Source: Candidatus Poribacteria bacterium (GTDB taxonomy: Bacteria; Poribacteria; WGA-4E; PCPOR2b). From it: a stretch of DNA of 64,000 nucleotides. Positions 9,399 through 57,973 of this stretch are shown piece by piece. The notes beneath the pieces are model-generated. The model had not been told where the DNA came from, did no database searches, and saw only the letters and a list, made by a program, of their open reading frames with translations. Location: the NCBI GenBank assembly GCA_965208675.1, contig OZ242351.1, positions 992,001-1,056,000 of the forward strand, given 5' to 3'. Positions within the stretch are counted from its first letter, which is position 1; every line of letters begins with the position of its first letter. The position numbers and the translations under genes are program-made.

Positions 9399-10402
9399 TG
9401 AGTCCGGAGGAAGCTACAAACATGCAAAAAACAAGACTAGTGAGTGGTGTCCGTCCAACCGGACTTCTGCATCTAGGGCATCTAGAAGGGATGTTGAAGA
9501 ACACTGCAAGCCTGCAAGACAAATACGAGTGTTTTCCCTTTATCGCCGATTGGCATTCACTTACCGATGTGACCGACACATCAAACCTTCCCCACTATAA
9601 ACTGCAGGCAGCAATTGATTGGTTGAGTGCGGGAATCGCCCCGGAAAAAAGCACGCTCTTCATTCAGTCCCACGTTGCGGCACATGCAGAATTATCGACG
9701 CTCCTCACCATGGTTACACCGGTGTCTTGGCTTGAGCGTTGCCCAACGTATAAAGACAAAATTCAAGACATCAATCAGCGCGAGGGACCTTCAACCGGAT
9801 TACTAGAATATCCAGTATTGATGACATCGGATGTCATCGTTTACAAAGCCGCCGTGGTGCCTGTTGGCGCGGATAATGTGGCTCACCTCGAAATCTCACG
9901 TGAAATCGTTCGCAGATTTAATCACGTCTACGGCGATGTTTTCCCCGAGCCGCAGCCGCTGTTGACGAAAACCGCGGAGTTGCCTGGGCTTGACGGCCGC
10001 AAGATGAGCAAGAGCTACGGTAATACCATTCAGCTATCCGATCCACCTGAGACCACAACGAAAAATCTTATGAAAATGGTAACAGATCCTGGCCGAGTAC
10101 GCCGCAATGACCCCGGCAATCCAGAGGTATGCCCCGTATTTGCGTATCATAAAGTTTACAATCCCGATGAGGTTCCACAAATTGACCGGGATTGCCGTTC
10201 CGCTGCGATAGGATGTGTCGATTGTAAACGTAATCTTAGCGATAATTTGATTGCTGAACTGACTCCATTCTATGAAAAACGAGCTGAATGGGCGTCAAAA
10301 CCGGAAGTGGTTCGAGAAGTTCTCGGTGATGGCGCAAATCGGGCACGCGGCGTTGCCCAAGAAACTATGGCAGAAGTCAGAGAGGCAATGAATCTAGTCT
10401 GA
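9398..10402 (+). CDS. trpS: Tryptophanyl-tRNA synthetase
   Basis: SGVRPTG-HLGH, YPVLM, VPVG and KMSKS motifs. Confidence 0.96.
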   Translation: MSPEEATNMQKTRLVSGVRPTGLLHLGHLEGMLKNTASLQDKYECFPFIADWHSLTDVTDTSNLPHYKLQAAIDWLSAGIAPEKSTLFIQSHVAAHAELSTLLTMVTPVSWLERCPTYKDKIQDINQREGPSTGLLEYPVLMTSDVIVYKAAVVPVGADNVAHLEISREIVRRFNHVYGDVFPEPQPLLTKTAELPGLDGRKMSKSYGNTIQLSDPPETTTKNLMKMVTDPGRVRRNDPGNPEVCPVFAYHKVYNPDEVPQIDRDCRSAAIGCVDCKRNLSDNLIAELTPFYEKRAEWASKPEVVREVLGDGANRARGVAQETMAEVREAMNLV

Positions 10403-10440
10403 CCGCCTTTAACAGAAATTGTTAACGCTAATGAGACCGC

Positions 10441-11199
10441 ATGGAAAACAGTGTTGAGTTTAATGACTCTCAGGTAAAGCCCGTATATGCCATCAAACTA
10501 GATTTCTTTGAGGGCCCTTTAGATTTACTGCTCCATCTCATTCAGAAAAATGAGATGGAGATTACGGATATCCCAATCGCCGAAATCACCGAGCAGTACC
10601 TAGAGTATCTCAACTTTATGGAACTGCTGGATCTTGATGTCGCGTCAGATTTTTTGGTGATGGCTGCGACTTTGCTTTATCTGAAATCTCAAAGCATTCT
10701 TCCATCTCTACAGGTGGACGATCAAAAACCGTTTAAGGATAGGGAAGATCTTGTCAGACAACTGTTAGCGTATAAACAGTTCAAGGAAGCGGCTCAGGCA
10801 TTAGATTATCATGCAGCTAAGCGGGAAAAAACCTATGGCAGGAGCGTCCATCCGGTTACCGATACGTCCGACTCGCGTGAGATTCAGATTAAGGCGACAC
10901 TGTTCGATCTCCTGTCTGCCTTCAAGCAGGTGATTGAAAGATCGGAGTTTACAGCGGACGACGATCATTACGAAGAAATTCAGGAAGAGCCGATTACCGT
11001 CGAGGAAAAGATGGAAATTGTGCAGCGTAGACTCAGTGAAGAACCGATGAACTTCAATGAGCTGTTCTCAGAATTCGCGAGCAAGATTGAACAGATTGTG
11101 ACGTTTTTGGCAATTCTGGAATTGATTCGCCTTCAGCGAATCTCCGCGGTACAATCCGGACACCTTGAAGACATCTATATTGTGAGACTTGACACGTAA
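10441..11199 (+). CDS. scpA: Segregation and condensation protein A
   Basis: FEGPLDLLLHLI N-terminus and VTFLAILEL C-terminus; adjacent to scpB. Confidence 0.96.
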   Translation: MENSVEFNDSQVKPVYAIKLDFFEGPLDLLLHLIQKNEMEITDIPIAEITEQYLEYLNFMELLDLDVASDFLVMAATLLYLKSQSILPSLQVDDQKPFKDREDLVRQLLAYKQFKEAAQALDYHAAKREKTYGRSVHPVTDTSDSREIQIKATLFDLLSAFKQVIERSEFTADDDHYEEIQEEPITVEEKMEIVQRRLSEEPMNFNELFSEFASKIEQIVTFLAILELIRLQRISAVQSGHLEDIYIVRLDT

Positions 11200-40203: not shown

Positions 40204-40251
40204 GTGCGCCCACCGTGATGTAATAACCCACAATCTTGAATTTCGTTTTTT

Positions 40252-41531
40252 GTAGGTTGGGTTAAGCGGATTCGTGAATAACGCTGCATAATAGCCATGA
40301 GCGCCGCACCTTGATTTAGTTTCAAATTCCTCATGGCGTAGCGAACCCAACGCTTTTCTCGTTCCTGCGTGTGAAACCGTCGAAATTTCATCCTAGGGTG
40401 ACGCAAACGTTTCAATCACGAACTGCAATTAAGGTAGAAACGGAGCATGTTGCGCCAATCTAGTTTTTGCAGGTTGGATAGAGCGATCAACCGACCGAAC
40501 AGTTCTTGTAGGTTGGGTTAAGCGGATTCGCGAATAACGCTGCAAAAGAGCCATGTACGCCGCTCCTTGATTCAGTCTCAAACTCCTCATGGCGTAGCGA
40601 ACCCAACGCTTTTCATGTCTGTCATTTCGAAAGCATCCAGACATCGTATCGCGTTCGCCAAGGCAATAACACACCGTGCCTCCATGTCACAACCCGGTGA
40701 GAACCACAAACATGAACACCGATGCCAAATCTATTTGGTTACCTTAAGTTCCTGTAGGTTGGGTTAAGCGATCAACCGACCGAATAGGGAGGGCGATAGT
40801 TCTAACCTTTAAAGACTAAACGCTGCATAATAGCCGTGAGCGCCACACCTTGATTCAGTCTCAAACTCCTCATGGCGTAGCGAACCCAACGCTTTTCTCT
40901 ATTTTGCCTGTGAAACCGTATTGAGGAATCTCAAAAATGAACCGAAGCAACCATTACGTCAAGATTGTTGAATGGTCCGATGAAGATCAAAGTTATATTG
41001 GCAGTTGCCCGGGACTCTTTTATGGTGGATGCCACGGGGATAATGAACAAAAGGTATTCGCTGAACTGTGTCGCATCGTTGAAGAGACGATTGAACTATA
41101 TCAGCGAGATGCCAGACCCCTACCATCAGCGACATCCGGCAAAAACTACGCTAACAAGATGTTGGAATTTGCCGAACAGACCGTAACGCTTTAGCGAGTG
41201 ATGTTCTTCTAGTTCTTGTAGGTTGGGTTAAGCGGATTCGTGAACAACGCTGCATAAGAGCCATGAACGCCAAACCTAGATTCCCTCTCAAGATTGTCAC
41301 GACGCAGCGAACCCAACGCTTTTCCTAAATCCGAATCTGGTTTGTTCTGCGAAATACGTGCCCGTTTTGACCGACGTATCAAGAGACCGATGAGTTCTTG
41401 TGGGTTGGGTAGAGCGATCAACCGACCGAATAGGGAGGGCGATAGTCTTCTCTATTTTTTGCGTGTATCTTGAACATGCAAGCAGTTTTTTGAATGCGTC
41501 CAAGGTTTGTTTGCGCGTAGCGAAACCCAAC
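40252..41531 (+). repeat. Array of long GTAG-type REP-like repeats (5 full copies, 1 partial)
   Basis: Copies start G(T/C)(A/G)GGTTGG at 40252, 40469 (partial), 40508, 40754, 41218 and 41400. Full copies end ACCCAAC-GCTTTT at 40351, 40607, 40890, 41317 and 41531, giving 100-137 bp units with shared internal blocks. Confidence 0.9.
40937..41194 (+). CDS. HicB-like antitoxin domain protein
   Basis: VEWSDEDQSYIGSCPGL..GCHGD...RPLP pattern. No hicA gene is adjacent. Confidence 0.75.
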   Translation: MNRSNHYVKIVEWSDEDQSYIGSCPGLFYGGCHGDNEQKVFAELCRIVEETIELYQRDARPLPSATSGKNYANKMLEFAEQTVTL

Positions 41532-41635
41532 GCTTTTCCTGTCCGTCATTACGAAAGCGTCTAGACTTCGTATTGCGTTCGCCAAGGAAATAACGCTCCG
41601 TATGTCCTAGGCACAACCCGTTTAGAATCGAAATC

Positions 41636-41962
41636 ATGAATACCGATACGAAATCAATTTGGTTACCCCAAGCCATTGTCATTGCGATGTTAATGGCCGC
41701 TCCTTTTTTGATGGACTCTGACGTGTTTTTCGGATTGCTCAAATTGGTCTGCTGTCCAGTGTTTGCGTATCTTGCATATCACGCGTGGAAGCAAAATAAA
41801 ACCGTTTGGGTTTGGGTTCTTGGGATCACCGCAGTTATATTCAATCCCATTATCCGCGTATACTCAATTTGGGACATGTCGCTACTTGTGGTCTTGGCTA
41901 GTATCGGAATAGCCTTCGCCGCTCTCTTCGTGCTGAATCCCAACAATCCAAAAAATGACTAA
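41636..41962 (+). CDS. Small membrane protein, DUF6804-like
   Basis: Four hydrophobic segments and the motif WVWVLGITAVIFNPII. Confidence 0.65.
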   Translation: MNTDTKSIWLPQAIVIAMLMAAPFLMDSDVFFGLLKLVCCPVFAYLAYHAWKQNKTVWVWVLGITAVIFNPIIRVYSIWDMSLLVVLASIGIAFAALFVLNPNNPKND

Positions 41963-42714: not shown

Positions 42715-44048
42715 TGGAATGACCCCAAAAAACTGGACAGTGAGCTAAGAAGGATTTTATAATAATTAACCGTCCAGAAAGGGGCTATCATGTCGAAGAC
42801 AAGACGTCAATTTACACCCGAATTTAAGCTCGAATGTGTACTAGATATCATCAGTGGGCGGAAACGCCCAGTCGAAATTTGTAACGAATATCAAATCAGC
42901 GATACCTTACTGTCCAAATGGCGCCAACACTTCATGGAAAACGCTGCGAATCTCTTTGTGGGTGAGCAGAACCACAAGAACGCCTCCAATGCGCGCATCG
43001 CTGAACTGGAGCGTCTCGTCGGGCAATTGACACTGGAGCTGTCTGCCTCAAAAAAAGTATTGAGTTACTTCGACTCTCGATAAAGCAGAAACGGGAATTG
43101 GCGAAACGCGGCAGCGAAGCATTTCCCATTAGCCTACTGTGTAATGTGCTCGGCTTGTCTCGAAGCAGTTTCTATTACGATTCCAAAGCCGATGGTGATG
43201 CTCAGCTTTGCCGGCATATCGAGCAAATACGTTTATCAAATCACCGCTATGGGTATCGCAGAATCACAAATGAACTGCATCGTCAAGGATTGGTTGTCAA
43301 CCGAAAACGGGTGCAACGTCTGGTTGGCGCACTAGGGCTTCAGGTACGTCCTAGGCGAAAGCGGGTTATCACCACCAACAGTCAACCCGGACGATATGCG
43401 TATCCGAATTTGCTCAAAGATTTATCAGTCACTTATCCTGACCAGATATGGTGTGCAGATATCACCTATGTTCCACTGGCTAGTGGTCAAATGGCTTATC
43501 TGGCGTTATTGTTTGATGTTTTTACTCGAACCATAAGAGGCTGGGAGTTGTCAAAAAACATGTCAGTTAACCTGCTGTCTGGGGCTTTGAGAAAAGCATT
43601 AGCAAGACAGCATCGTCCGCAAATCCATCATTCAGACCGAGGTGGACAGTACATTGCTGAGAAGTATTGTCAGCAATTGAGAGCGATAGCGTGCCGCATT
43701 TCCATGACGGACCGTGGGAAACCGTGGCAGAATCCATACGTTGAGAGTACGATTGGCAGAATCAAAGACGAGTATATCGTTGACTCCGAGTATCAGAATT
43801 TCCGGGATGCATACAACCAACTTAGTCTAGTATTAGATGTCGTGTATAATCAGAAAAGGCCTCATTCAGCGCTAGGCTATCGGACACCTGCTGAATTCGA
43901 GGCAGCGTATAATGCACACTAGAACACCAATCGATATTTAATCTTGAATTAACAACGCAGCACTAACACAGTTATAGGTTAAGTCCTAAACTTCAAAATA
44001 CCTTCTTAACATCGACATTTTCGTGTCCAAACAATTGGGGTCACTGCC
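42715..44048 (+). mobile_element. IS3-family insertion sequence A (about 1334 bp)
   Basis: IRL TGGAATGACCCCAA...TGGACA and IRR TGTCCA...TTGGGGTCACTGCC, flanked by AAT on both sides; orfA/orfB organisation. Confidence 0.9.
42790..43922 (+). CDS. IS3 transposase OrfAB (orfA 42790-43083; orfB in -1 frame to 43922)
   Basis: HTH OrfA; A7G slippery site at 43050-43057; OrfB DDE motifs WCADITY, HHSDRG, NPYVES and RPHSALGY. Confidence 0.92.
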
Positions 44049-44051
44049 AAT

Positions 44052-45367
44052 TATAATTACCCCCAAAAACTAGACAGTGTCTTAAGGTGGAATTGTTGCT
44101 GTCAAAACGGCCATGTTATGAGCCATAATAAGGCTCAGCAATGCCAAGAATTGCGAAAGGAGTTTGTTTAACATGGCTCGTAGAAAACAGTACGATAATC
44201 GATTCAAAGCGCAGGTGGCGATTGAAGCCATTAAAAATGAACGCACCATGGCGCAGATTGCCAGTGACTACGAAGTCCACCCGAATCAGGTCAGGCAGTG
44301 GAAAAGACAGATTCTGGAACAATCACCCCAGCTATTTGCGAACGGACACACGCAATCAACTTCCGACAACGACCGCCTTATAGCTGAACTCTACCGGCAA
44401 ATCGGTCAGTTGAAGGTAGAACTAGACTGGCTTCAAAAAAAAACTCGAATGCTCCATTAGCACAGAAGCGGCGGCTTGTCAAGCAAGAGCGCGGTGCTCC
44501 ATCGGTTTCGAGACAGTGCGAACTGTTAGGGTTGCCGCGCGCTTCGTATTATTATCAACCCGCAGCGGAAGAATCGCCGGAAAACCTGCTTTATATGCGT
44601 CTGATTGATGAACAGTACATTAAAACGCCGTGCTACGGTGTCCCTCGAATGACGGACTGGCTATGTGATAATGGCCACGCTGTCAACCGGAAACGGATTG
44701 CTCGGTTGATGCGAAAGATGGACTTAGTTGCCATCTATCCCAAGCCCCGTCTCTCCAAGCACGGCAGGCCGTCGAAAAAGTATGCTTATCTACTGAAGGA
44801 TTCAATTATCACTCGACCGGACCAGGTATGGGCAACTGATATCACCTATATCCGTTTGAACACCGGCTTTGTGTATCTAGTGGCGATTATGGATTGGTAC
44901 TCTCGATATGTGTTATCATGGGAATTGTCAAATACACTAGACGTTTACTTTTGTCTATCGGCACTGGAACGGGCATTGAGTTGTTCTAGCCCTTTGATAT
45001 TCAATAGCGACCAGGGCGCGCAGTTCACGTCAGATGCCTTTACGACTCGGCTTGAATCGGCTAACATTGCCATCAGTTGGACTGGTGCTGGCAGCGTGTT
45101 TGACAACATTTTAATTGAGCGGCTCTGGCGGACCGTCAAGTATGAACATGTGTATCTTCACGCTTATGACTCAGTTCACGCGGTTTGGTGTGGCTTGAAC
45201 AACTATTTCAAGTTTTATAATGAGGAGCGGCTTCATACGTCGCTCAATACTAGAACACCTCATGAGGTGTATTTTCAAAAATCCTAGGTGTTGAAGCATA
45301 GCCGGATTGTCTAGCAATTACACCTTAATAGACGAGCATTACTGTCTAAACATTGGGGGTAAGTAAA
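44052..45367 (+). mobile_element. IS3-family insertion sequence B (about 1316 bp), different from A
   Basis: IRL TATAATTACCCCCAAAAACTAGACAG and IRR CTGTCTAAACATTGGGGGTAAGTAAA. No matching target duplication. Confidence 0.88.
44173..45287 (+). CDS. IS3 transposase OrfAB (orfA 44173-44460; orfB in -1 frame to 45287)
   Basis: FKAQVAIEA OrfA; A9 run at 44435-44443; OrfB motifs WATDITY, FNSDQGAQF and ERLWRTVKYE. Confidence 0.92.
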
Positions 45368-45581
45368 CCTTCCTATGACCAAAATGCGTTGGCTTACGCT
45401 CCACCAATCACATTTACTTACGCAACCAAACCACGCTATGCGCGGGCACATTGAGAATCCTGCTGCCTGCCCCGCAAAACGCAACCTACTTCAACTTGCC
45501 CGCCTTTCAGGTTTAGCCACAAACTACGCATTGAGTTTTACTGTCCGACTTTGGTATGATATGGGGGCTAGGAGAATGGCT

Positions 45582-47207
45582 ATGAATATGCTGTATTACG
45601 GAGATAACCTCGAAATCCTAAGAGAGCATATCCCCGATGAAAGCGTAGATTTGATATACATTGATCCGCCGTTCAACTCAAATCAGGCCTACAATGTCAT
45701 TTTCAGTGAGACAGACGGCACAGCATCACAAGCGCAAATTCAAGCCTTCGAGGACACATGGCGGTGGGGCGACGCCACTGAGCAGGCATACCATGAGTTG
45801 GTCGGCACCGCGCCGCACGTTCTAGTTGAGACAATCAAGAGTTTTCGCGGCTTCCTTACCGAGACGAACCTGATGGCATATCTCGTGATGATGGCGCTGC
45901 GATTAGTGGAGCTGCACCGCGTCCTTAAGCCGACTGGGAGTTTTTATCTCCATTGTGACCCGAAAGCATCGCATTATCTGAAGATCATTTTAGACCAGGT
46001 GTTTGGAGTTCAGAATTTCCGGAACGAAATTTATTGGAAAAGAAAGACAGGGCGTGCCGGCCCAACCAACCGCTTTGGAACATCCTGTGATATACTCCTT
46101 TGGTATTCTAAATCTAATGACTATACGTTTACTCCTCAATTTCGCAAGAGTAATACTGAATATATAGAAAAGATGTTTCGCTTTACCGATGAGGATGGAC
46201 GAATCTATATGACTGATAACCTTGCAAGCCCTAATCCAAGGCCGAATCTAACGTATGAGTATAAAGGCTATAAACCGCCGGAGAAAGGATGGGCAATATC
46301 ACGGGAAAAAATGGAACAGTGGGATAGAGAGGGCAGGCTCCATTTTCCTAAATCTCCTAATGGTCGCATCCAGCGGAAACGATACTTGGATGAGTTGATA
46401 GGAGAAGAAGTTCCCTCGCTTTGGGACGACATTCTTGCCATTGGGTCACAAGCTAAAGAACGTCTAGGCTATCCAACCCAAAAACCTGAAGCACTGCTAG
46501 AGCGGGTAATTGAAGCCAGTAGTAACGAGGGCGATGTTGTTTTGGACGCCTTCTGTGGTTGCGGCACGGCTGTCGCCGTTGGCGAACGGCTCAACCGCCA
46601 GTGGATTGGGATTGACATTACGCACCTTGCTATCTCCTTATTGAAGTATCGCCTTGCAGATGCCTTCGGCGATGATGCGGAATATGAAATCGTCGGTGAG
46701 CCAAAAGACATGGCCAGCGCGGAGGCTTTAGCCGTTCAGGATCGTTATCAATTCCAATGGTGGGCGTTGAGCCTGATTCGGGCAAGACCTTATAAGGAGA
46801 AAAAAAGAGGGGCTGACGAAGGCGTGGACGGGGTTATCTATTATCAAGACGTTGAGCCGGATAACACGAAAAAGGTGCTAACTCGGAAGATTGTCGTTCA
46901 AGTCAAAAGCGGGAAGGTTTCTGTCAAGGACATACGAGAACTCAAATCGGTCGTCGAAAATCAAGACGCTGTAATCGGTGTCTTTATCACTCTCAACACC
47001 CCAACCCAGCCGATGCTCAAGGAAGCGGCAGCGGCAGGTCGATTTCAATGGCTTCACGTCAAAGACATCACGTATCCAAAGATTCAGATTCGCACGATAC
47101 AAGAATTGCTAGATGGGAAGGGTATCGAGTATCCGCGTACACCTACTGATGTCACGTTTCGCAAAGCGAAGCGGGCAAACCCGAAAGTCGATCAGCTGGA
47201 GCTTTAG
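45582..47207 (+). CDS. N4/N6 (beta-class) DNA methyltransferase fused to a C-terminal Mrr-like restriction endonuclease domain
   Basis: GDNL, IDPPF, YPTQKP and DAFCGCGT; C-terminal ADEGVDG...VQVKSG nuclease motif. The AGGAG RBS supports ATG 45582. Confidence 0.9.
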   Translation: MNMLYYGDNLEILREHIPDESVDLIYIDPPFNSNQAYNVIFSETDGTASQAQIQAFEDTWRWGDATEQAYHELVGTAPHVLVETIKSFRGFLTETNLMAYLVMMALRLVELHRVLKPTGSFYLHCDPKASHYLKIILDQVFGVQNFRNEIYWKRKTGRAGPTNRFGTSCDILLWYSKSNDYTFTPQFRKSNTEYIEKMFRFTDEDGRIYMTDNLASPNPRPNLTYEYKGYKPPEKGWAISREKMEQWDREGRLHFPKSPNGRIQRKRYLDELIGEEVPSLWDDILAIGSQAKERLGYPTQKPEALLERVIEASSNEGDVVLDAFCGCGTAVAVGERLNRQWIGIDITHLAISLLKYRLADAFGDDAEYEIVGEPKDMASAEALAVQDRYQFQWWALSLIRARPYKEKKRGADEGVDGVIYYQDVEPDNTKKVLTRKIVVQVKSGKVSVKDIRELKSVVENQDAVIGVFITLNTPTQPMLKEAAAAGRFQWLHVKDITYPKIQIRTIQELLDGKGIEYPRTPTDVTFRKAKRANPKVDQLEL

Positions 47208-49769: not shown

Positions 49770-50354
49770 ATGAACGGCAATCCAACCTGGTTGGAAGCCC
49801 TGCAAGACGATGATGTTAGAAAACATATCGCATACCACATCACGCTGGTCGGCACCACCAAAGCGGTCAATGCAATCTATCATAATCCGGCTTTCGCAGG
49901 TTGCCGAACCGGTGACGCAAAGCAGGATCGTAACGCCATACGCTCCGCAATTCAGGTTTGCAATCCGAGAAATAGAGACCGCTTCAACAGCCAAAAATAC
50001 GGTGCCGCCGTCGCAGATGCGATGAGCCACCTTTTGGAGTATTTAGTCTCAAAATCCATCCCGAACCTTGAACAAACCCAGGAACGGTTGCAAAAAGTCG
50101 ACGACCAAGCCGCCAAAACGGAGGACATCGATGACCTTAAACAACTCCTACTGCAACAGCAAATTCACATTCGACATCAAGGAGCCCTATTATCCCAGAT
50201 GCAATGGGCTTTTCAGTTCCTGCAATGGCGCGCGCAACATGCCGGTCCCGGTGCAGCCCAACCCCGGCTTGATTCGGAAGATGCGCTCGGGGAACTCCCC
50301 GAACCTCCTGAGTCGCTACGAGGAAATTCGACGCCGGCGCAAAGTCCTGAATGA
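49770..50354 (+). CDS. Putative terminase small subunit (positional assignment)
   Basis: AGGAGG RBS; 194-aa helical/coiled-coil protein directly upstream of and overlapping TerL. No sequence motif recognised. Confidence 0.55.
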   Translation: MNGNPTWLEALQDDDVRKHIAYHITLVGTTKAVNAIYHNPAFAGCRTGDAKQDRNAIRSAIQVCNPRNRDRFNSQKYGAAVADAMSHLLEYLVSKSIPNLEQTQERLQKVDDQAAKTEDIDDLKQLLLQQQIHIRHQGALLSQMQWAFQFLQWRAQHAGPGAAQPRLDSEDALGELPEPPESLRGNSTPAQSPE

Positions 50355-52059
50355 TGACGACCGGGCGCTAATCGTCCACATGGCTTATCTCGATCCGAGG
50401 TTCTTTGTCGAATACTACCTCCACGACCCGCAGTCCATGTCCCCCCTGCAGCCCCACCATGTCCGCCTGCTCAACCTCATCCCCTACGACAAAACCGGCG
50501 TCAAAGTCAACGTCCAAGCCCCGCGCGGCTCCGCCAAGACAACCTGCTGCGCCGTCTGGTACCCGCTCTGGAGAATCTGTTTCAAATCATTTCAACTCGC
50601 TGAAGGCGTCCCGGAAGAAAAATTCATCCTCATCATCAGCCGCAATCAAACCATGGCAAAGGGCATTCTCGAAAACCTCAAACGTCTAACCGAAAATGAG
50701 AATATTGTCCGGGACTTTGGTAACCTATCTGGTCGTGTATGGAAAAAAGATGAATGCGAGACCGCTAACGGCGTCGCTGTCCGAGTGCTCGGACGAAAGC
50801 AGTCCCCGCGCGGCGCTCTCGTCGCCGGTAAACGCCCCTCGCTCGTCGTCGTCGACGACCTCGAAGACCCGAAACGCTGCTTAAACCCCGATCTGCGTGA
50901 GGAAGATGCGGACTGGTTCTTTTCGGACATCATGTTCGCCTCCGACATCGGCGGAAACCTTAACGTCATCTACGCCGACACCGTCAAGCATCCGGACAGC
51001 CTGTCCATGCGTCTAACACAAACCCCCGGCTGGAACAAAGTCCACTTCAAAGCAATCCTCGACCCCGAAGACCTCTACCACCCCACCCACGAACATCTCT
51101 GGAAAGGTTGGGACGCAATTTATAGTGACTTGTCGTTAGACGACGCAGAACGAGAAGCCAAAGCCGACGAATTCTACAACGCGCATGAGGAGCAGTTGAA
51201 CGCCGGCGTCACCGCTCTTTGGCCCGAAGAGCTGTCCTACCTGAAAGTCCGCAAGATGATCGCAGAGCGCGGATACCACTACACCCTGCGCGAACTGCAA
51301 AACATCGCTCGCGACCCAAGCATGTCATTGTTCGACATTGAGAACGCCATGACGTTTGAGGTCGTTGACGCAGGCTTAAAACGAGGCGACGGTCGCATCG
51401 TCGAATGGCATCAGATCGGCGGCTTCACCACCTACATCGACACCATGGGCGGCCGCGACGCGCAGCAGAATTCCTACGCCTGCGCTGTCGTCGTCGTATG
51501 GGAGCCGCTGCCCGGCGGACGCAAATCCCACCCCGATTCGTTAGCCGGTGTCAACGCTTACGTGCTGGACTGCTGGATGGGCAAAGCTGGACGCGCCGAA
51601 CAGTTCGAGAACGGCATTCTTAAACACCAGCGTTCGGACGCCGTGCTGTACAGAGCCGTACCAAAATCGTATTTTGTGGCTGAGGAGCGTCCGGACCCGG
51701 ACCGCTCCATCCGAACGTCTTACGATAATGTATTCAACGCGCTAAAAGAAGAACTCAAATTTGAAAAGCCGCTGGTCTATCACCCGCAGACACAAAATAA
51801 AGAAGAACGCATTGCAAACTTGGAGCCGCCCATCAAGAACGGTTGGCTCGCATTCAATAAGGTAGGTTTGCCGAGTGAGTTCTGGAAGCAGATGCGCGAA
51901 TTCCCGACTTCCGAGCACAACGACGCCCCCGACGCTGTTCAGGGCGCGCTTCGCCACAGAATCACCACCACCCCCAAGCAGCGCGAACACGACGAACGGC
52001 GTCAACGCGCACGCGACGAGTGGTATGGCGAATACGGACGTCCAACCGTCCATCTATAA
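50281..52059 (+). CDS. Phage terminase large subunit (start uncertain: 50239 or 50281)
   Basis: Walker A APRGSAKTT, RG...RPSLVVVDDLED Walker B, nuclease YIDT, NKEERI..LEP and FP..EHNDAPDAVQGA. Confidence 0.88.
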   Translation: MRSGNSPNLLSRYEEIRRRRKVLNDDDRALIVHMAYLDPRFFVEYYLHDPQSMSPLQPHHVRLLNLIPYDKTGVKVNVQAPRGSAKTTCCAVWYPLWRICFKSFQLAEGVPEEKFILIISRNQTMAKGILENLKRLTENENIVRDFGNLSGRVWKKDECETANGVAVRVLGRKQSPRGALVAGKRPSLVVVDDLEDPKRCLNPDLREEDADWFFSDIMFASDIGGNLNVIYADTVKHPDSLSMRLTQTPGWNKVHFKAILDPEDLYHPTHEHLWKGWDAIYSDLSLDDAEREAKADEFYNAHEEQLNAGVTALWPEELSYLKVRKMIAERGYHYTLRELQNIARDPSMSLFDIENAMTFEVVDAGLKRGDGRIVEWHQIGGFTTYIDTMGGRDAQQNSYACAVVVVWEPLPGGRKSHPDSLAGVNAYVLDCWMGKAGRAEQFENGILKHQRSDAVLYRAVPKSYFVAEERPDPDRSIRTSYDNVFNALKEELKFEKPLVYHPQTQNKEERIANLEPPIKNGWLAFNKVGLPSEFWKQMREFPTSEHNDAPDAVQGALRHRITTTPKQREHDERRQRARDEWYGEYGRPTVHL

Positions 52060-52095
52060 CGCCGCGAAAACCGCACTGTTAGCAGGCATTCAGGA

Positions 52096-52228
52096 TTGAC
52101 CGTCCAGGTTTAAATTTGATATACTATTCCTGACGGCGGCTAATGACACGCTGCGCCTGAACATTACGGCTTAGGAGAAGCGGTTACCGAATTTTAATTT
52201 GATTTTTGTCGCGAGAGTTTAGTATAAT
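52096..52228 (+). promoter_or_regulatory. Two tandem sigma70-like promoters
   Basis: TTGACC-18 nt-TATACT with extended TG (52096-52125), and TTGATT-18 nt-TATAAT (52199-52228). Confidence 0.55.
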
Positions 52229-52238
52229 TAATACTAGT

Positions 52239-52522
52239 TCTGGTCAGATTAAAAATCTCATTTCGAGCTTACAAGGAACCCGGACGATGGCGATTTGTGA
52301 ATGCTAAAAAACTAGGTTGTTCTGGATATCAATACTCGCACAAGGTAAGCACGCGCATTCGGCAATAAGCTGCCCTCTGATATGACGTGGAAACACGCCT
52401 ACGCGCAAATGTTGAGTTCGCCAGGACATCCCAGTTGCATAATCGAGTCCCCTTTTCGTGGCCGGAGAAAGGAAAGCATATCCGACAGCAATAATTTGAA
52501 GTAAGCTCAATCCATGACCAGA
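52239..52522 (+). ncRNA. Unidentified large structured RNA or cis-regulatory leader candidate
   Basis: Nested long-range pairs TCTGGTCA/TGACCAGA, GAGCTTAC/GTAAGCTC, GTTGTT..GGATAT/ATATCC-GACAGC and ACTCG/CGAGT; GAAA-tetraloop hairpin; promoter before and terminator after; no long ORF. Confidence 0.6.
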
Positions 52523-52545
52523 TGGTTTTCTTACATCGGAAACGG

Positions 52546-52577
52546 ACCACGATTCAAAAAGGGATCGTGGTTTTTTT
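52546..52577 (+). terminator. Intrinsic terminator
   Basis: ACCACGATTC/GGATCGTGGT stem followed by a T run (52571-52577). Confidence 0.8.
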
Positions 52578-52692
52578 GTTGCCATTTATTGAAATCCGCA
52601 CTCTAAAAATGGACCTCTCGCAGCCAAAAATTGATTTTTAAATTCAATTCTTACGAAAGCCATACACCTCCTGAAAAACGGGGGAGTTTATC

Positions 52693-54924
52693 ATGAAACT
52701 GATCGAACCAATGCCAAATCCAGTCAGACAAAAGATACAAGGGTTACTTGCGCCCGGCGAAGATGAGCTAATCTGCGTATCTGCTGACATGAACCGCGAT
52801 GGCCGTTACGGCACACGCTGGATTGTGGTCACAAACAAGCGCATCGTAATAATTTCGGAAGATGCCGTCGATGATGTTGTACAGATACTCATTGAAGATG
52901 TCGTATCCGTACGGACCGAACCCCTAGTGGGCGGAGGACGTTTGGAGATAGAGCGGAAGGCAAGCCCAACCGCCATTGTCCGGTACTCCAACTCTATGGC
53001 GGTGAAGTTCTCCGAAGTCGCGCGGGGCATTGAACAGCTCCGCAAGCAGGAACCGTTCCAAATTGATAGCCAACTTGAACGCACACGATGTGAAAAATGC
53101 GGCAGACTGTTGCCTGAAAAGGACGGCATCTGCCCGGCTTGTATTCAGCGGTTAGCGACGCTGCGGCGAATCGGAAGCTACCTAATGCCCTACAAATGGC
53201 GTGCTGCACTTCTCGCAATGGCGTCTCTCATTGGAACGCTGACAGAGATTTTACCGCCGCTGATTACCCGGCACATCGTGGACGATGCGTTGGTACCCGC
53301 GAAAGAATCAGCCATCGGCATGGAGGAACGGTTAACGCTGCTCGGTTGGTTTGTGCTGGGCTTAGTCGGTGTGCGGGTGTTGGGTTGGGGCGCGGAATGG
53401 GTACACGGCTGGACGGTGACCTGGTTGGGCGCCCGCGTCACAGCCGATATCCGAAGCCGGTTATACCGCCAACTCGAGCTGCTTTCACTGCAGTTTTATG
53501 ACAAGCGGCAGGTCGGCGCGGTGATGTCACGCGTGACAAGAGACGCCGGCAGGTTACAGGACTTCCTCGTGGATGGCATGCCCTATCTGATCATTAATGG
53601 ATTGATGATTGTTGGCATACTGGTATTCCTGTTTCTGATGAGTTGGCGGTTGACACTATACATTTTATTGCCGATCCCGATTCTGCTAGCGTGGGGAGTC
53701 CTCTTCTGGCGGCGGATGCGCCGGTACTTCCATAAGTGGGATCAGAGATGGTCAGATCTCATGTCTACGGTGAACGAAACGTTGTCTGGAATTCGCGTGG
53801 TAAAGGCATTCGCACAGGAGATGCGCGAGGTTGCCTCGTTTAATAGACGAAATAAGGTGCTGCGGCGGATAGCTGTAAGGACGGAAATCAACTGGGAAAT
53901 CTTTTTCGCCACATCGAGTCTTGTGACTAGCTTGGGGGTACTGATAATTTGGCTTTTCGGAGGGATAGAGATGTTCAAGGGCGAGTTTTCTATCGGTAAG
54001 CTATTGGCATTCTACGGCTTCATGTGGCTCGTCTACGGTCCCATCCAATGGTTCGGGCAGGTCAACAATTGGATGACACGTGCGTTCGCGGGAGCCGAGC
54101 GAATCTTCGAGGTCATCGACACGCCGCCTGAAGCTTACGACGATGCAGACGCCGTACCCATGCCTAACATTGAGGGCAGGATCGATTTTCAGAAAGTCAC
54201 GTTTGGTTACGATAAGAGCAAGCCGGTGCTGCATGAAATTAACCTCGAAGTCACACCGGGGGAGATGGTAGGACTTGTCGGCAAGTCAGGTGTGGGTAAG
54301 ACGACCACCGTGAACCTAATCTCCCGGTTTTACGACGTAGATCACGGCGCAATTGAGATTGACGGCGTGGATAACCGAACAATCCGGTTGGAAGATCTGC
54401 GCAGCCAGATTGGCATCGTCGCCCAAGAACCTTTTTTGTTCAGCGGTACAATTTCTGAGAACATCGGCTACGGCAAACCCGGCGCAGGCTTTGAAGAACT
54501 CATGGACGCCGCACAAGCCGCCAACGCTCACAATTTTATCGTCGCCAAGCCAGACGGCTATGATACCCAGGTGGGAGAACGGGGAAACAACCTGTCAGGC
54601 GGTGAAAAGCAGCGAATCGCTATTGCCCGGGCAATCCTCCACAATCCGAGGATTTTAATTTTGGATGAAGCGACTTCGTCGGTGGACGTGGAGACGGAAA
54701 AGCAGATTCAGGAAGCCGTTTCCCGGCTAACCAAGGGCCGCACCACCATCGCAATTGCCCACCGGTTGTCAACGCTGCGGAACGCGAACCGGTTAGTCGT
54801 GCTTGAGGAGGGGCGTATCGTGGAGGTTGGGACACATAGCGAATTGATGGAAAAACGAGGGATTTTCTACGACCTTGTTCAATTACAGCGGCAGACATCA
54901 GAAATTATCGCAGTTAAAGCGTAG
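52693..54924 (+). CDS. ABC exporter (TMD+NBD) with N-terminal extra domain and Cys4 Zn-ribbon, paralogue 1
   Basis: RCEKCG...ICPAC, six-TM domain, GKSGVGKT, LSGGEKQR, ILDEATS and IAHRLST. Confidence 0.92.
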   Translation: MKLIEPMPNPVRQKIQGLLAPGEDELICVSADMNRDGRYGTRWIVVTNKRIVIISEDAVDDVVQILIEDVVSVRTEPLVGGGRLEIERKASPTAIVRYSNSMAVKFSEVARGIEQLRKQEPFQIDSQLERTRCEKCGRLLPEKDGICPACIQRLATLRRIGSYLMPYKWRAALLAMASLIGTLTEILPPLITRHIVDDALVPAKESAIGMEERLTLLGWFVLGLVGVRVLGWGAEWVHGWTVTWLGARVTADIRSRLYRQLELLSLQFYDKRQVGAVMSRVTRDAGRLQDFLVDGMPYLIINGLMIVGILVFLFLMSWRLTLYILLPIPILLAWGVLFWRRMRRYFHKWDQRWSDLMSTVNETLSGIRVVKAFAQEMREVASFNRRNKVLRRIAVRTEINWEIFFATSSLVTSLGVLIIWLFGGIEMFKGEFSIGKLLAFYGFMWLVYGPIQWFGQVNNWMTRAFAGAERIFEVIDTPPEAYDDADAVPMPNIEGRIDFQKVTFGYDKSKPVLHEINLEVTPGEMVGLVGKSGVGKTTTVNLISRFYDVDHGAIEIDGVDNRTIRLEDLRSQIGIVAQEPFLFSGTISENIGYGKPGAGFEELMDAAQAANAHNFIVAKPDGYDTQVGERGNNLSGGEKQRIAIARAILHNPRILILDEATSSVDVETEKQIQEAVSRLTKGRTTIAIAHRLSTLRNANRLVVLEEGRIVEVGTHSELMEKRGIFYDLVQLQRQTSEIIAVKA

Positions 54925-55090
54925 CGTCCGCATATCTCCTCATGTACACCTTGACAATATTACCGCGAATTTTGGATTATGGCATATTCAAGCTTAAGGT
55001 CAGTAATTCTATCGCACTCCACGAAAATGCCGCGCATCGACGTGGCATTCAATCGTGCCAGCGCAAACTCGGACAAATGGAACACCAATA

Positions 55091-57319
55091 ATGCAACCGT
55101 TTATTGAATCGCTGCCTCCTGAGGTGGATGCGAAACTGCAAAGCGCGAAACCTTCGGATGAACAGGTACTTATCCAGGTCTCCGCGGATCTCACCACCGA
55201 CCAAGCATTTGGGGAAAAGTGGTTGGTAGCAACCAAATTCCGTCTACTGGTCGTGCCCGCTGATGGCGTCGTTGAGCAAATACCGCTCGACACAATTCAG
55301 GACATCAAAACTGAAGAACTGGTCGGCGGCGGCTGCCTAGTCGTTGAACGAAAATCGGGCGCACCCGTCTATCTGCACTATTCCAGCTCTTTAATTCCAA
55401 AATTCGCTGAGGTAGCGCAAGGAATCGGTCAACTCTCCAAAGGCAAACCGCTTGAGCTGCCGACGGAGATGGAACGGACGCGATGCGAAAAGTGCGGACG
55501 GCTGCTCCCGGAGAAAGACAGCAAATGTGTAGCCTGCATTAAAAAATGGAACACCTTAATGCGAATCCAAAGCTACGTTAACCCTTACCGCGTTCAACTC
55601 ACGTTGGTTGTAGTAATCACAGTGATCGGCGTGTTGATAAATTTGCTTCCGCCGCTAATTACTGAACGCATCATCGACGATGTGCTTATACCGTTGTCAA
55701 ACTTTAATCTTTTAGTTTGGCTTGTGGCGGGGTTATTGGGCGCCTATCTTTTTAGTTGGCTGTCCGAAATCGGGCATACGGCATTAAGCTGTTGGCTGGG
55801 TTTCCGCGCGGCTGAGGACATCCGGGCTAAACTCTATCGTTGTTTGCAGTTCCTGCCCATTAGATTTTACGACAAACATAAAGTGGGCGCGCTAATATCT
55901 CGCATGACCAACGACGCAGATCGGTTGGAGGATTTTATCGCCTTTGAGGTTCCCTACGTCATTTCCAACGCACTGTTATTAGTGGGTATTTTCTGCCTGC
56001 TGTTGTACAAAAATTGGGTGCTTACGCTCTATGTGTTGCTCCCCGTGCCGCCGATTGTTCTGGGGGGAATCTTCATGTGGAATCGTTTGACGCGTTTTTG
56101 GCGCCTTTGGTCTGCGAGGTGGGGGCGGTTCTCCTCGCACCTGAACGAGTCGATCACGGGGATTCGATTGGTGAAGGCTTTCGCGCAGGAAGACCGTGAA
56201 AGCACAGTGTTTGACCGGCATAACGACGCACTGCGGCAGGTAAACGTTTCGGGCAATCGGGCATGGTTCGTTTTCTACACCATCACAAACTTTCTGATGA
56301 GTTTCGGCGCCTTCTTTGTCTGGTATTTTGGCGGGAAACAGGTTCTGGGTGAGGAGTTTAAACTCGGAGAATTGACTGCATTCATTAGTTACCTTTGGAT
56401 GCTTTATCAACCGCTTCGGTGGTTTGGCGACTCCTACAACTTCATGCTTCGCGCTTTTGCCGGCGCCGAGCGAATTTTTGAAGTGATGGACGCGCCTTCT
56501 GATCCGTTTGATAATCCAAATGCCAGAAATATGCCAAAAATTGACGGGCGGATTACCTTCAAAGATGTCAAGTTTGGTTACGATCCAGGCAAGCCGGTCC
56601 TCAGAGATATTAATCTAACGGTAGAACCGGGAGAAATGATTGGCTTAGTCGGCAAATCCGGCGTGGGTAAAAGCACGATGGTCAATCTGATATGCCGATT
56701 CTACGATGTGACTCACGGCACTTTGCAGGTTGATGACGAGGATATCCGGAACATCCGTATCGAGGATTTGCGGTCTCAAATCGGCATAGTCCTACAGGAG
56801 CCATTTCTGTTTAACAGGACAATTGCGGAAAACATCCACTACGGCAATCCGGATGCGTCGTTTGACGAAGTCATGCGCGCAGCGATTGCTGCAGAAGCGC
56901 ATGATTTCATCGTTGCTAAACCCGACGGATATGACACGATGGTCGGCGAGCGCGGGAATAAACTCTCCGGCGGCGAAGGGCAGCGTATCGCTATCGCGAG
57001 AGCCATCCTGCATAATCCAAAAATTTTGATTCTCGACGAAGCGACATCATCGCTCGACACCGCAACAGAAAAGAAGATTCAGGCTGCTATTGCTAAGTTA
57101 ATCGAAGGACGGACGACGTTTGCCATTGCGCACCGGCTTTCCACGCTGCGCAACGCCGACCGGCTGATTGTTCTGGATGAGGGAAAAATCGAAGAGATTG
57201 GCACCCATGAGGAATTGATGGATCGGAAAGGGCGCTTCTACAATTTAGTCCAGACGCAAAAGGAAACATCGGCAGTCATGGCGGTCGGCGGCGGGAAAGA
57301 CGATCCGGGCAATGAATAG
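55091..57319 (+). CDS. ABC exporter (TMD+NBD) with N-terminal extra domain and Cys4 Zn-ribbon, paralogue 2
   Basis: RCEKCG...KCVAC, GKSGVGKS, LSGGEGQR and ILDEATS; collinear with paralogue 1. Confidence 0.92.
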   Translation: MQPFIESLPPEVDAKLQSAKPSDEQVLIQVSADLTTDQAFGEKWLVATKFRLLVVPADGVVEQIPLDTIQDIKTEELVGGGCLVVERKSGAPVYLHYSSSLIPKFAEVAQGIGQLSKGKPLELPTEMERTRCEKCGRLLPEKDSKCVACIKKWNTLMRIQSYVNPYRVQLTLVVVITVIGVLINLLPPLITERIIDDVLIPLSNFNLLVWLVAGLLGAYLFSWLSEIGHTALSCWLGFRAAEDIRAKLYRCLQFLPIRFYDKHKVGALISRMTNDADRLEDFIAFEVPYVISNALLLVGIFCLLLYKNWVLTLYVLLPVPPIVLGGIFMWNRLTRFWRLWSARWGRFSSHLNESITGIRLVKAFAQEDRESTVFDRHNDALRQVNVSGNRAWFVFYTITNFLMSFGAFFVWYFGGKQVLGEEFKLGELTAFISYLWMLYQPLRWFGDSYNFMLRAFAGAERIFEVMDAPSDPFDNPNARNMPKIDGRITFKDVKFGYDPGKPVLRDINLTVEPGEMIGLVGKSGVGKSTMVNLICRFYDVTHGTLQVDDEDIRNIRIEDLRSQIGIVLQEPFLFNRTIAENIHYGNPDASFDEVMRAAIAAEAHDFIVAKPDGYDTMVGERGNKLSGGEGQRIAIARAILHNPKILILDEATSSLDTATEKKIQAAIAKLIEGRTTFAIAHRLSTLRNADRLIVLDEGKIEEIGTHEELMDRKGRFYNLVQTQKETSAVMAVGGGKDDPGNE

Positions 57320-57412
57320 AACTGCCTTCCTTAACGCGGCATTCCTCTTCGTAGACCAAGAAAAACTCTCAACGCATTTTTTGCCGCATCTATATTAAAT
57401 CCGGAGAATACC

Positions 57413-57973
57413 ATGGAAAATACTAAATCTTTTAGTGATAAAGACAAGCCTAAAGCACAGCATTCAGTTACGCCGATTCAGACACCGCCGCCGGAATGCG
57501 TCAATCCAAAGGACATTCGATTGTTCCGAGAACCCCCGTGGAAACTGCGATTAACCATTGCCGGCGACCGTTCCTACCTCATGGTGCGAGTCGCTCGCGC
57601 AGCGCCGCTATCTCAACCGTCGAGGTATATCTGCTTTCTTGATGAAAAGAATGAGGTAATCTGGACTGTCGAAGACCCAAGCATCCTGGACGCTGACACT
57701 CGCCGAATCTTAAAGGAAGAACTCGACCAACGGTATATGACCGCTGTTATTGAGGTAGTCAACTCGCTCCGGAACGAATTCGGGGTGTCGTATTGGGACG
57801 TACAGACCAACCGAGGAAATCGGGAGTTTGTGGTACGGAACGTGTCCGAGAGCGCACAATGGATTTCTCCACGCCGTCTATTGCTAATTGACGTGGACGG
57901 CAACCGATTCGAAATCCCGGATATCGACGTGCTCGACAAGCGGAGTTTTGGTCTGATAGATATGGTGATTTAG
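57413..57973 (+). CDS. DUF1854 family protein
   Basis: RAAPLSQPSRYI, EELDQRY, WDVQTNRG and LLIDVDGNRFEIPD; downstream of ABC exporters, as is usual for this family. Confidence 0.85.
   Translation: MENTKSFSDKDKPKAQHSVTPIQTPPPECVNPKDIRLFREPPWKLRLTIAGDRSYLMVRVARAAPLSQPSRYICFLDEKNEVIWTVEDPSILDADTRRILKEELDQRYMTAVIEVVNSLRNEFGVSYWDVQTNRGNREFVVRNVSESAQWISPRRLLLIDVDGNRFEIPDIDVLDKRSFGLIDMVI

Follow-up and report, generated by a model that had tools for sequence, protein, structure and literature searches.

Transcription-terminating riboswitches and leader attenuators include the SAM-I, lysine and T-box leaders, and in Bacillus subtilis the heterodimeric ABC exporter BmrCD is under ribosome-mediated attenuation via the leader peptide BmrB. 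Poribacteria are uncultured and, to our knowledge, their regulatory RNAs are essentially uncharted; a literature search for Poribacteria RNA motifs or riboswitches yielded nothing relevant. Here we describe a non-coding unit of ~340 nt (about 52235-52577, + strand) located 5' of an ABC transporter gene of Candidatus Poribacteria, within a stretch of 64 kb that was analysed as a whole and is referred to as the window. Like terminating riboswitches and attenuators the element is part of an operon 5' leader, lies on the same strand as the operon and ends in an intrinsic terminator, and the 3' strand of its closing helix has a predicted alternative partner in the terminator's 5' arm. It differs from them in matching no Rfam family, in a body of ~300 nt that is larger than most aptamers, in a second promoter at its 5' end, and in a putative antiterminator that is not maintained in two of four homologues, with covariation being marginal. 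With the BmrCD leader it has in common a terminator-containing leader 5' of paired half-transporter ABC exporter genes, but a short open reading frame (ORF) with a ribosome-binding site is not conserved in the four homologues.

The locus comprises the following features, with coordinates given as positions in the window:

50068-52059, upstream: 663-aa ORF, phage terminase large subunit (phrog_38, E 2.6e-58)
52060-52692: intergenic region, flanked by the 663-aa ORF and ABC1
52095-52125, + strand: promoter P1, ATTGACC-N-TGATATACT, extended -10 (promoter scan 10/12 with TG)
52199-52228, + strand: promoter P2, TTGATT-18-TATAAT, sigma-70-like (10/12), directly 5' of the element
52235-52276, + strand: fast-evolving 5' segment, carrying the 5' strands of two helices (H1 and H2) proposed in an earlier note on this DNA
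52280-52465, + strand: conserved core, predicted as a 186-nt rod with a branched tip (RNAalifold consensus; columns 49-234 of alignment A3)
52456-52464, + strand: candidate antiterminator strand, identical to the base-helix 3' strand of the rod, predicted to pair with 52543-52552
52466-52500, + strand: purine-rich linker (GAGAAAGGAAAGCAU...), unpaired in the A3 consensus structure
52501-52534, + strand: conserved 3' hairpin, GUAAG...CCAU-GACCAG-AUGG...CUUAC, predicted in 4/4 homologues
52544-52577, + strand: intrinsic terminator with a 12-bp stem, a 6-nt loop and a U7 tract (terminator scan)
52578-52692, + strand: spacer from the terminator to the ABC1 start codon, poorly conserved, with a small hairpin at the ribosome-binding site
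52693-54924, + strand: ABC1, half-transporter (Pfam ABC_membrane + ABC_tran)
55055-57319, + strand: ABC2, half-transporter (Pfam ABC_membrane + ABC_tran)
57413-57973, + strand: DUF1854 protein (Pfam DUF1854)
52693-57973, + strand: downstream operon of ABC1, ABC2 and DUF1854

The DUF1854 gene is followed on its 3' side by an IMP dehydrogenase (IMPDH) gene. Both ABC proteins have a PH-like N-terminus and contain the zinc-ribbon motif C-x2-C-x10-C-x2-C, so that the label "Zn-ribbon ABC" given to them in the earlier note is a fair one. The closest NCBIfam models for the operon proteins, CphA_assoc_ABC and CphA_assoc_prot, both scored below cut-off. A mutant-fitness study posted on bioRxiv proposes that DUF1854 is a subunit of an amino-acid-polymer exporter, so that an amino-acid polymer is the proposed, still conjectural export substrate of the ABC + DUF1854 family. 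Just 5' of the element lie IS elements and the terminase gene, the relatives of which in phages are only distant (at most 29% identity, tblastn) and uninformative as to the RNA. Comparison of 52090-52600 with phage and plasmid collections gave no blastn match, and neither a second copy of the element nor an att-like direct repeat was found within the 64-kb window.

P1 and P2 both reached 10/12 in the promoter scan. The P1 boxes (TTGACC-18-TATACT, 52096-52125) have a TG-extended -10, and transcription is predicted to start at ~52132 from P1 and at ~52235 from P2. P2 was found at the aligned position in all four homologues, with 10-11 of 12 consensus matches. In the window the terminator scan placed a hairpin at 52544-52573, with a T-run after it, and an intrinsic terminator is present in each of the four homologues (stem of 10-12 bp, 7-8 U), the hairpin energies ranging from -11.9 to -16.4 kcal/mol. 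Between the terminator and the ABC1 start at 52693 no promoter-like site was detected on the + strand in the window or in homologue L001, and in L002 and L003 only weak 9/12 sites occur 3' of the terminator. The promoters, the terminator and the lack of a promoter in front of the ABC gene had all been read from the window in the earlier note, and the scans bear them out.

We collected homologues from 80 loci anchored on DUF1854 by a profile search of genome contigs, to which the window was added. L001-L021 are Candidatus Poribacteria metagenome-assembled genomes (MAGs), the remainder being mostly Latescibacterota and Gemmatimonadota. By blastn and nhmmer the element was found in three of the 80 loci (L001, L002 and L003) besides the window, all of them Candidatus Poribacteria. 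In each of these four genomes it lies on the same strand as ABC1 and directly 5' of it, and the gene order element, ABC1, ABC2, DUF1854, IMPDH is identical, confirming that the element heads an ABC/ABC/DUF1854 operon. Neither an nhmmer profile of the four RNAs (80 loci plus window, E ≤ 10) nor a covariance model of the core (R1, E ≤ 10) retrieved a further homologue, the best extra hit reaching 11 bits (E 0.99). The element was found neither in about 17 other Poribacteria loci (L004-L021; 20 kb each) nor in the 59 loci of other phyla fetched via DUF1854, and is thus not a general feature of the DUF1854 operon; the operon is distributed far more widely than the element (4/81 sources). No copy away from the operon was seen among the DUF1854-anchored loci, the only loci searched. 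L002 and L003 have the terminase in the same position, with 80-81% aa identity. In L001 a rearrangement with IS remnants has left a 76-aa terminase fragment, and this genome is without an intact terminase and P1, yet P2 and the element are kept at 85-90% identity.

P1 carries a signature that recurs in a sister clade of 16 loci (L006-L021), where both a promoter and a leader of ~125 nt are conserved 5' of a single ABC gene and the DUF1854 gene. Each of the 16 has a single ATTGA-N17-TGATATACT, always 5' of the ABC gene, with the -10 ending 145-448 nt upstream of the ABC start, and the other 64 of the 80 loci have none. In the 64-kb window it is found once, at P1 (52095-52125), against an expectation of 0.01. 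Variants of P1 are present in L003, where the boxes are identical but stand one base closer together, and in L002, where the -10 is TATGCT; in L001 the -10 part is deleted. Judged by this shared signature, P1 is very probably the orthologous promoter of the ABC/DUF1854 operon and probably its ancestral one. Since the signature is that of the operon promoter in 16 loci, the element lies inside the operon leader, and with P1 located 5' of it, transcripts from P1 must cross it. The element, P2 and the terminator all sit within the 560-nt leader extending from P1 to ABC1.

The sister-clade leader (alignment A5) thus shares with our locus the promoter signature, the operon and a conserved untranslated leader, but its sequence has no detectable similarity to the element. 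Of the profile searches with it, one, with a profile in which the L007 row was a mis-sliced 17 nt, found nothing at E ≤ 100 in 51900-52800 and the matching stretches of L001-L003, and one of the whole window gave only chance-level hits (E 1.6-5.9), none of them on the element. It differs further in that only ~125 nt are conserved, that no terminator was seen when looking for a simple T-run pattern, and that almost no consensus structure is predicted.

Conservation varies strongly along the locus, as the identities to the window show:

First 45 nt: L001 47%, L002 56%, L003 62%
Core: L001 90%, L002 73%, L003 73%
3' 60 nt including the terminator: L001 95%, L002 87%, L003 87%
ABC1 codon third positions: L001 85%, L002 60%, L003 62%
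Spacer after the terminator: L001 89%, L002 16%, L003 48%

The 3' 60 nt are the most conserved part (87-95%). In L002 the core (73%) exceeds the ABC1 codon third positions (60%), and both exceed the spacer (16-48% in L002 and L003), the length of which is 111, 110, 384 and 131 nt in the four genomes. These values indicate that the core and the 3' end are under constraint, whereas the flanking spacer is not. The segment 52235-52276 is only 47-62% identical, even when compared with L001, the flanks of which are ~92% identical.

The element is non-coding. Every reading frame is closed in at least one of the four homologues, single-base indels being out of register, and the variable columns show no 3-base periodicity. 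A conserved short ORF with a ribosome-binding site was not found at shared columns of the four homologues; a 40-codon frame in the window is without a Shine-Dalgarno sequence and interrupted in L003. A 93-aa ORF on the minus strand (52304-52585) was also considered and discarded, being without a counterpart in PHROGs or NCBIfam and not preserved in either L002 or L003. A leader-peptide attenuator was rejected as well, no short ORF with a Shine-Dalgarno sequence being common to all four.

The element also matches no recognised RNA family, as the earlier note had supposed from the lack of signature sequences. At the gathering score Rfam 15, with its models of riboswitches, T-box, tmRNA, RNase P, SRP, 6S, ROOL/GOLLD, raiA and other RNAs, had no match in the whole 64-kb window and none on the element homologues in L001-L003. 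When the threshold was relaxed to E ≤ 10, the sole match on the element in 51900-52800 was the terminator-like TEG147 (E=0.81); apart from this terminator-like match, the hits in the window region and L003 were at chance level and lay off the element or on the minus strand. A motif named "Poribacteria-1", if it is in Rfam, did not match the element. ARAGORN found no tRNA or tmRNA gene in the window. Altogether, this non-coding unit is genuine and conserved, comes with a promoter and a terminator of its own, and has no known family.

Single-sequence folding gave an uneven picture. On the + strand, 52230-52580 folds with a minimum free energy (MFE) of -103.3 kcal/mol (z=-3.17), which none of 100 shuffles matched. 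Omitting the terminator (52235-52540) reduced the z-score to -1.61, with 7/100 shuffles as good, and folding beyond chance, the comparison proposed in the earlier note, is borne out only in part. The minus strand folds with z=-1.75. The z-scores of the homologues are inconsistent, ranging from -0.3 to -3.3 (L001 -3.28; L002 -0.33, 34/100 shuffles as good; L003 -2.20). For L002 and L003 the predicted MFE fold is not the rod, and it departs from the folds obtained for the window and L001.

The RNAalifold consensus of the four sequences consists of a short 5' hairpin, the rod (52280-52465), the linker, the 3' hairpin (52501-52534) and the terminator. The largest internal loop of the rod measures ~10 by 6 nt, and its tip is branched. 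The consensus fold pairs 96.4% of 308 cells, one cell being one base pair in one sequence; helices 2-9 are paired to 92-100% and helices 10-11, which form the 3' hairpin, to 96-100% with one double change. This hairpin is predicted in 4/4 homologues with 5' arms that differ between them. Many of the consensus pairs are G-U pairs, compatible with the + strand only. Double changes were found in 4/77 pairs, compared to 1.8 ± 1.0 in shuffles (13/500 as high). Covariation from these four sequences, which are effectively two pairs, is marginal, and values of this order can occur among related sequences even in the absence of structure. In column shuffles, which do not preserve dinucleotide content, the consensus energy had a z-score of -3.96 for the whole element (0/200 as good), -2.88 for the body without terminator (0/200), -2.68 for the rod (2/200) and -5.57 for the 3' part (0/200); the body has a structure conservation index (SCI) of only 0.51-0.60, the 3' part one of 0.81. 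On these predictions the 3' part is likely to have a conserved fold, and for the core such a fold is plausible.

The earlier note had closed the element by four nested long-range helices. The complementary segments are as written there, each sequence matching and 36/36 listed pairs being standard in the window, and the helices are present in the window; across the homologues, only 75.7% of 144 cells are paired. H1 is paired in 79% of cells (its core pairs hold in 25/32), H2 in 59.4%, the two parts of H3 in 75% and 83%, and H4 in 85%, and there is one double change among these helices, a value reached by 124/500 shuffles. The 5' strands of H1 and H2 fall within the fast-evolving first 45 nt, and H2 forms a perfect 8-bp helix in the window only. 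By this sequence comparison the four-helix architecture is largely window-specific, and the predicted consensus of rod (52280-52465) and 3' hairpin is the better-fitting model. Of the two crossing pairings that had been suggested as pseudoknots, the complementarity is kept (93.8% of 48 cells, two double changes), but not the role: since they compete with the rod for the same 5' bases, they would be alternatives to it rather than pseudoknots added on top. As main fold they were rejected, with an enforced consensus energy of -15.1 compared to -55.3. The earlier observation was thus largely right, whereas its specific helix model was not upheld.

The antiterminator put forward in the same place, TGGTTTTC pairing with GAAA-CGG-ACCA, proved weak (-3.9 to -5.3 kcal/mol). 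We scanned for others by pairing each upstream 16-mer with the 5' arm of the terminator, and in 4/4 homologues the best partner was the 3' strand of the base helix of the rod (columns 219-235). In the window the predicted duplex (52456-52464/52543-52552) has 9 bp and one bulged A. This duplex is stronger than the base helix itself (-11.9): it reaches -15.5 kcal/mol both in the window, where 5/200 shuffles did as well, and in L001, where 6/200 did. In L002 (-10.0) and L003 (-11.6) it is at chance level, 127/200 and 136/200 shuffles being as good. In L001 the duplex is part of the MFE fold of a transcript ending before the 3' arm of the terminator. In equilibrium folds of the full-length RNA the terminator hairpin persists in 4/4 homologues, even with the 5' strand of the base helix blocked, and any switching would therefore have to be kinetic. 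Taken as predictions, these pairings raise the possibility of a terminator-riboswitch-like arrangement.

Our preferred reading, a tentative one with a probability of roughly 0.45, is that the element serves the ABC/ABC/DUF1854 exporter operon as a non-coding leader RNA restricted to one clade, which probably attenuates transcription. Transcription would start at P1 (~52132) and at the second strong promoter P2 (~52235), pass through the conserved core of ~230 nt and then the 3' hairpin, and in most cases end at the terminator (52544-52577), so that the main product would be an RNA of ~340 nt and the operon would be expressed only upon read-through. As a switch, 52456-52464 would pair either with 52280-52287, closing the core, or with 52543-52552, forming the antiterminator, and a ligand or a protein may set the balance between the two pairings. 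That the RNA is made and that the alternative pairing operates is what we infer from these predictions, whereas the analysis shows that the element is conserved, does not code for protein, has its promoters and terminator, and is located inside the operon leader. A bolder version seems rather unlikely to us, namely a new class of large (~300 nt) attenuators, sensing a ligand or a protein, that would have arisen in one Poribacteria lineage within the leader of an ABC/DUF1854 operon for an exporter of the amino-acid-polymer type and would switch between the closed rod and an antiterminator made of the rod base strand and the terminator arm.

In favour of an attenuator we counted the conserved position between P1 and ABC1, the bracketing by P2 and the terminator, the lack of a promoter 3' of it in the window and L001, the shared best partner of the terminator arm, the consensus energies and that the sister clade, too, carries a conserved long leader 5' of its ABC gene; against it we counted the chance-level antiterminator in L002 and L003, the weak promoter-like sites there, the persistence of the terminator at equilibrium, the low SCI of the body, the inconsistent z-scores, the rod not being the MFE fold of L002 or L003, the absence from most loci with the operon and the marginal covariation, as well as the strong promoter at the 5' end of the element and the drop in conservation after the terminator, both as in an independent sRNA gene. 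The main rival is accordingly a stand-alone, trans-acting sRNA of ~340 nt, transcribed from P2 and ended by its own terminator, which would lie 5' of the operon only via conserved gene order and exert its effect on other targets, through base pairing or by binding protein. All four homologues have a strong, conserved P2 (10-11/12) and a strong terminator with 7-8 U, conservation collapses directly after the terminator, and the most conserved 3' 60 nt consist of a hairpin, a short single strand and the terminator, as in many sRNAs; the range of 4/81 sources, much narrower than that of the operon, and the terminator winning all equilibrium folds also suit such an RNA. It is less easily reconciled with the location of the element between P1 and ABC1 on the same strand, where the terminator would block the operon unless read through, and with the lack of a convincing promoter after the element in the window or L001. 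That no copy was found away from the operon weighs little, the loci being DUF1854-anchored. We regard a stand-alone sRNA as a genuine possibility, if a doubtful one.

Two further readings appear less probable still. The element might comprise no functional RNA, being conserved regulatory DNA or a slowly decaying remnant next to a phage-derived terminase, with helices that arose by chance. The terminase gene and IS elements just upstream, the marginal covariation and the shuffles that fold as well as the element without its terminator (7/100) or as L002 (34/100) would fit this, but synonymous-like sites are less conserved than the core and the adjacent spacer far less so, a promoter and a terminator bracket the element in 4/4 homologues, and the consensus fold energy beats 200/200 column shuffles. 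Nor is there a trace of protein coding left or any similarity to phage or plasmid DNA, and L001 has lost the terminase and P1 while keeping P2 and the element at 85-90%; we consider this reading improbable. A divergent housekeeping RNA, e.g. a 6S-like one as contemplated in the earlier note, might have been missed by Rfam models in a poorly sampled phylum. Its likeness to 6S RNA lies in the rod-like core of ~186 nt, whose internal loop measures ~10 by 6 nt, and in the two tandem promoters that precede the element, Escherichia coli ssrS also having tandem promoters. Set against this, neither 6S RNA (RF00013) nor another housekeeping family matched at E ≤ 10 in the window region or L003, no large central bubble is predicted, and the ~340-nt unit has extra 5' and 3' domains. 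A housekeeping RNA would also be expected in more than four species, and no homologue was found in about 17 other Poribacteria loci, a weak argument at 20 kb per locus. A 6S-like identity thus finds no support and is very improbable indeed.

With its narrow range of four species and a fold known by prediction only, the element presently carries limited weight. If it is a stand-alone sRNA, it would be one more lineage-restricted sRNA. If the leader attenuator that we prefer is a sensing leader, the element, matching no Rfam 15 family, would be a new RNA family and would point to a signal controlling the ABC + DUF1854 exporter family.

The region upstream of the ABC/ABC/DUF1854 operon and its leader element contains a phage terminase large subunit gene that occupies one shared chromosomal place in three species, with amino acid identities of 80-81%, and that is left as a 76-aa fragment in a fourth species (L001 3388-3603). 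No further phage structural genes were seen adjoining the terminase gene, which stands alone, and an ORF at window 49770-50354, located upstream of the gene and overlapping it, shows a conservation of 54-55%. The features of this upstream region are as follows.

Window 40230-41700, also L001 1747-2538: repeat unit of ~110 nt, five copies
Within window 43098-47207, preceding the terminase region: a pair of transposase genes of the IS3 type (rve/HTH_21)
Within window 43098-47207, preceding the terminase region: gene for a fusion of a DNA methylase with an Mrr-like nuclease domain
Window 50068-52059, L002 2272-4152, L003 2520-4400: gene for the large subunit of a phage terminase (match to phrog_38, E 2.6e-58)

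Fragments of the IS3-type transposase and methylase-Mrr genes flank the deletion in L001. The five repeat copies sit within a 2.9-kb stretch lacking long ORFs, and the ends of the repeat unit, GTAGGTTGGGTT ... AACCCAAC, are inverted complements of each other. Comparison of the unit with Rfam gave no match, and its folding z-scores were ~0.

A different conserved 5' leader, ~125 nt in length, is common to 16 other Poribacteria genomes (L006-L021), where it precedes an operon of a single ABC gene and DUF1854. It occupies the ~130 nt that follow a conserved extended -10 promoter (example, L013 7377-7512), the promoter ending 145-448 nt before the ABC start. Four loci scanned against Rfam yielded no match for this leader, and the predicted consensus structure consists of one 5-bp helix only. 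In the Poribacteria genome L004, the 10 kb to the left and to the right of the DUF1854 gene (9935-10549) contain no gene for an ABC transporter, in contrast to every other Poribacteria locus whose ORF layout was examined.

Between the operon-type promoter P1 and the promoter at the 5' end of the element, P2, two sequence features were identified.

L002 4312-4509, L003 4556-4760: GC-rich insert of ~150 nt
Window 52174-52198: near-palindrome CGGTTACCG, directly upstream of the P2 -35 box

The insert is 94% identical between L002 and L003 and is missing in the window and in L001. As read from the alignment, the near-palindrome is kept in the window, L002 and L003, and it could serve as a binding site for a regulator.
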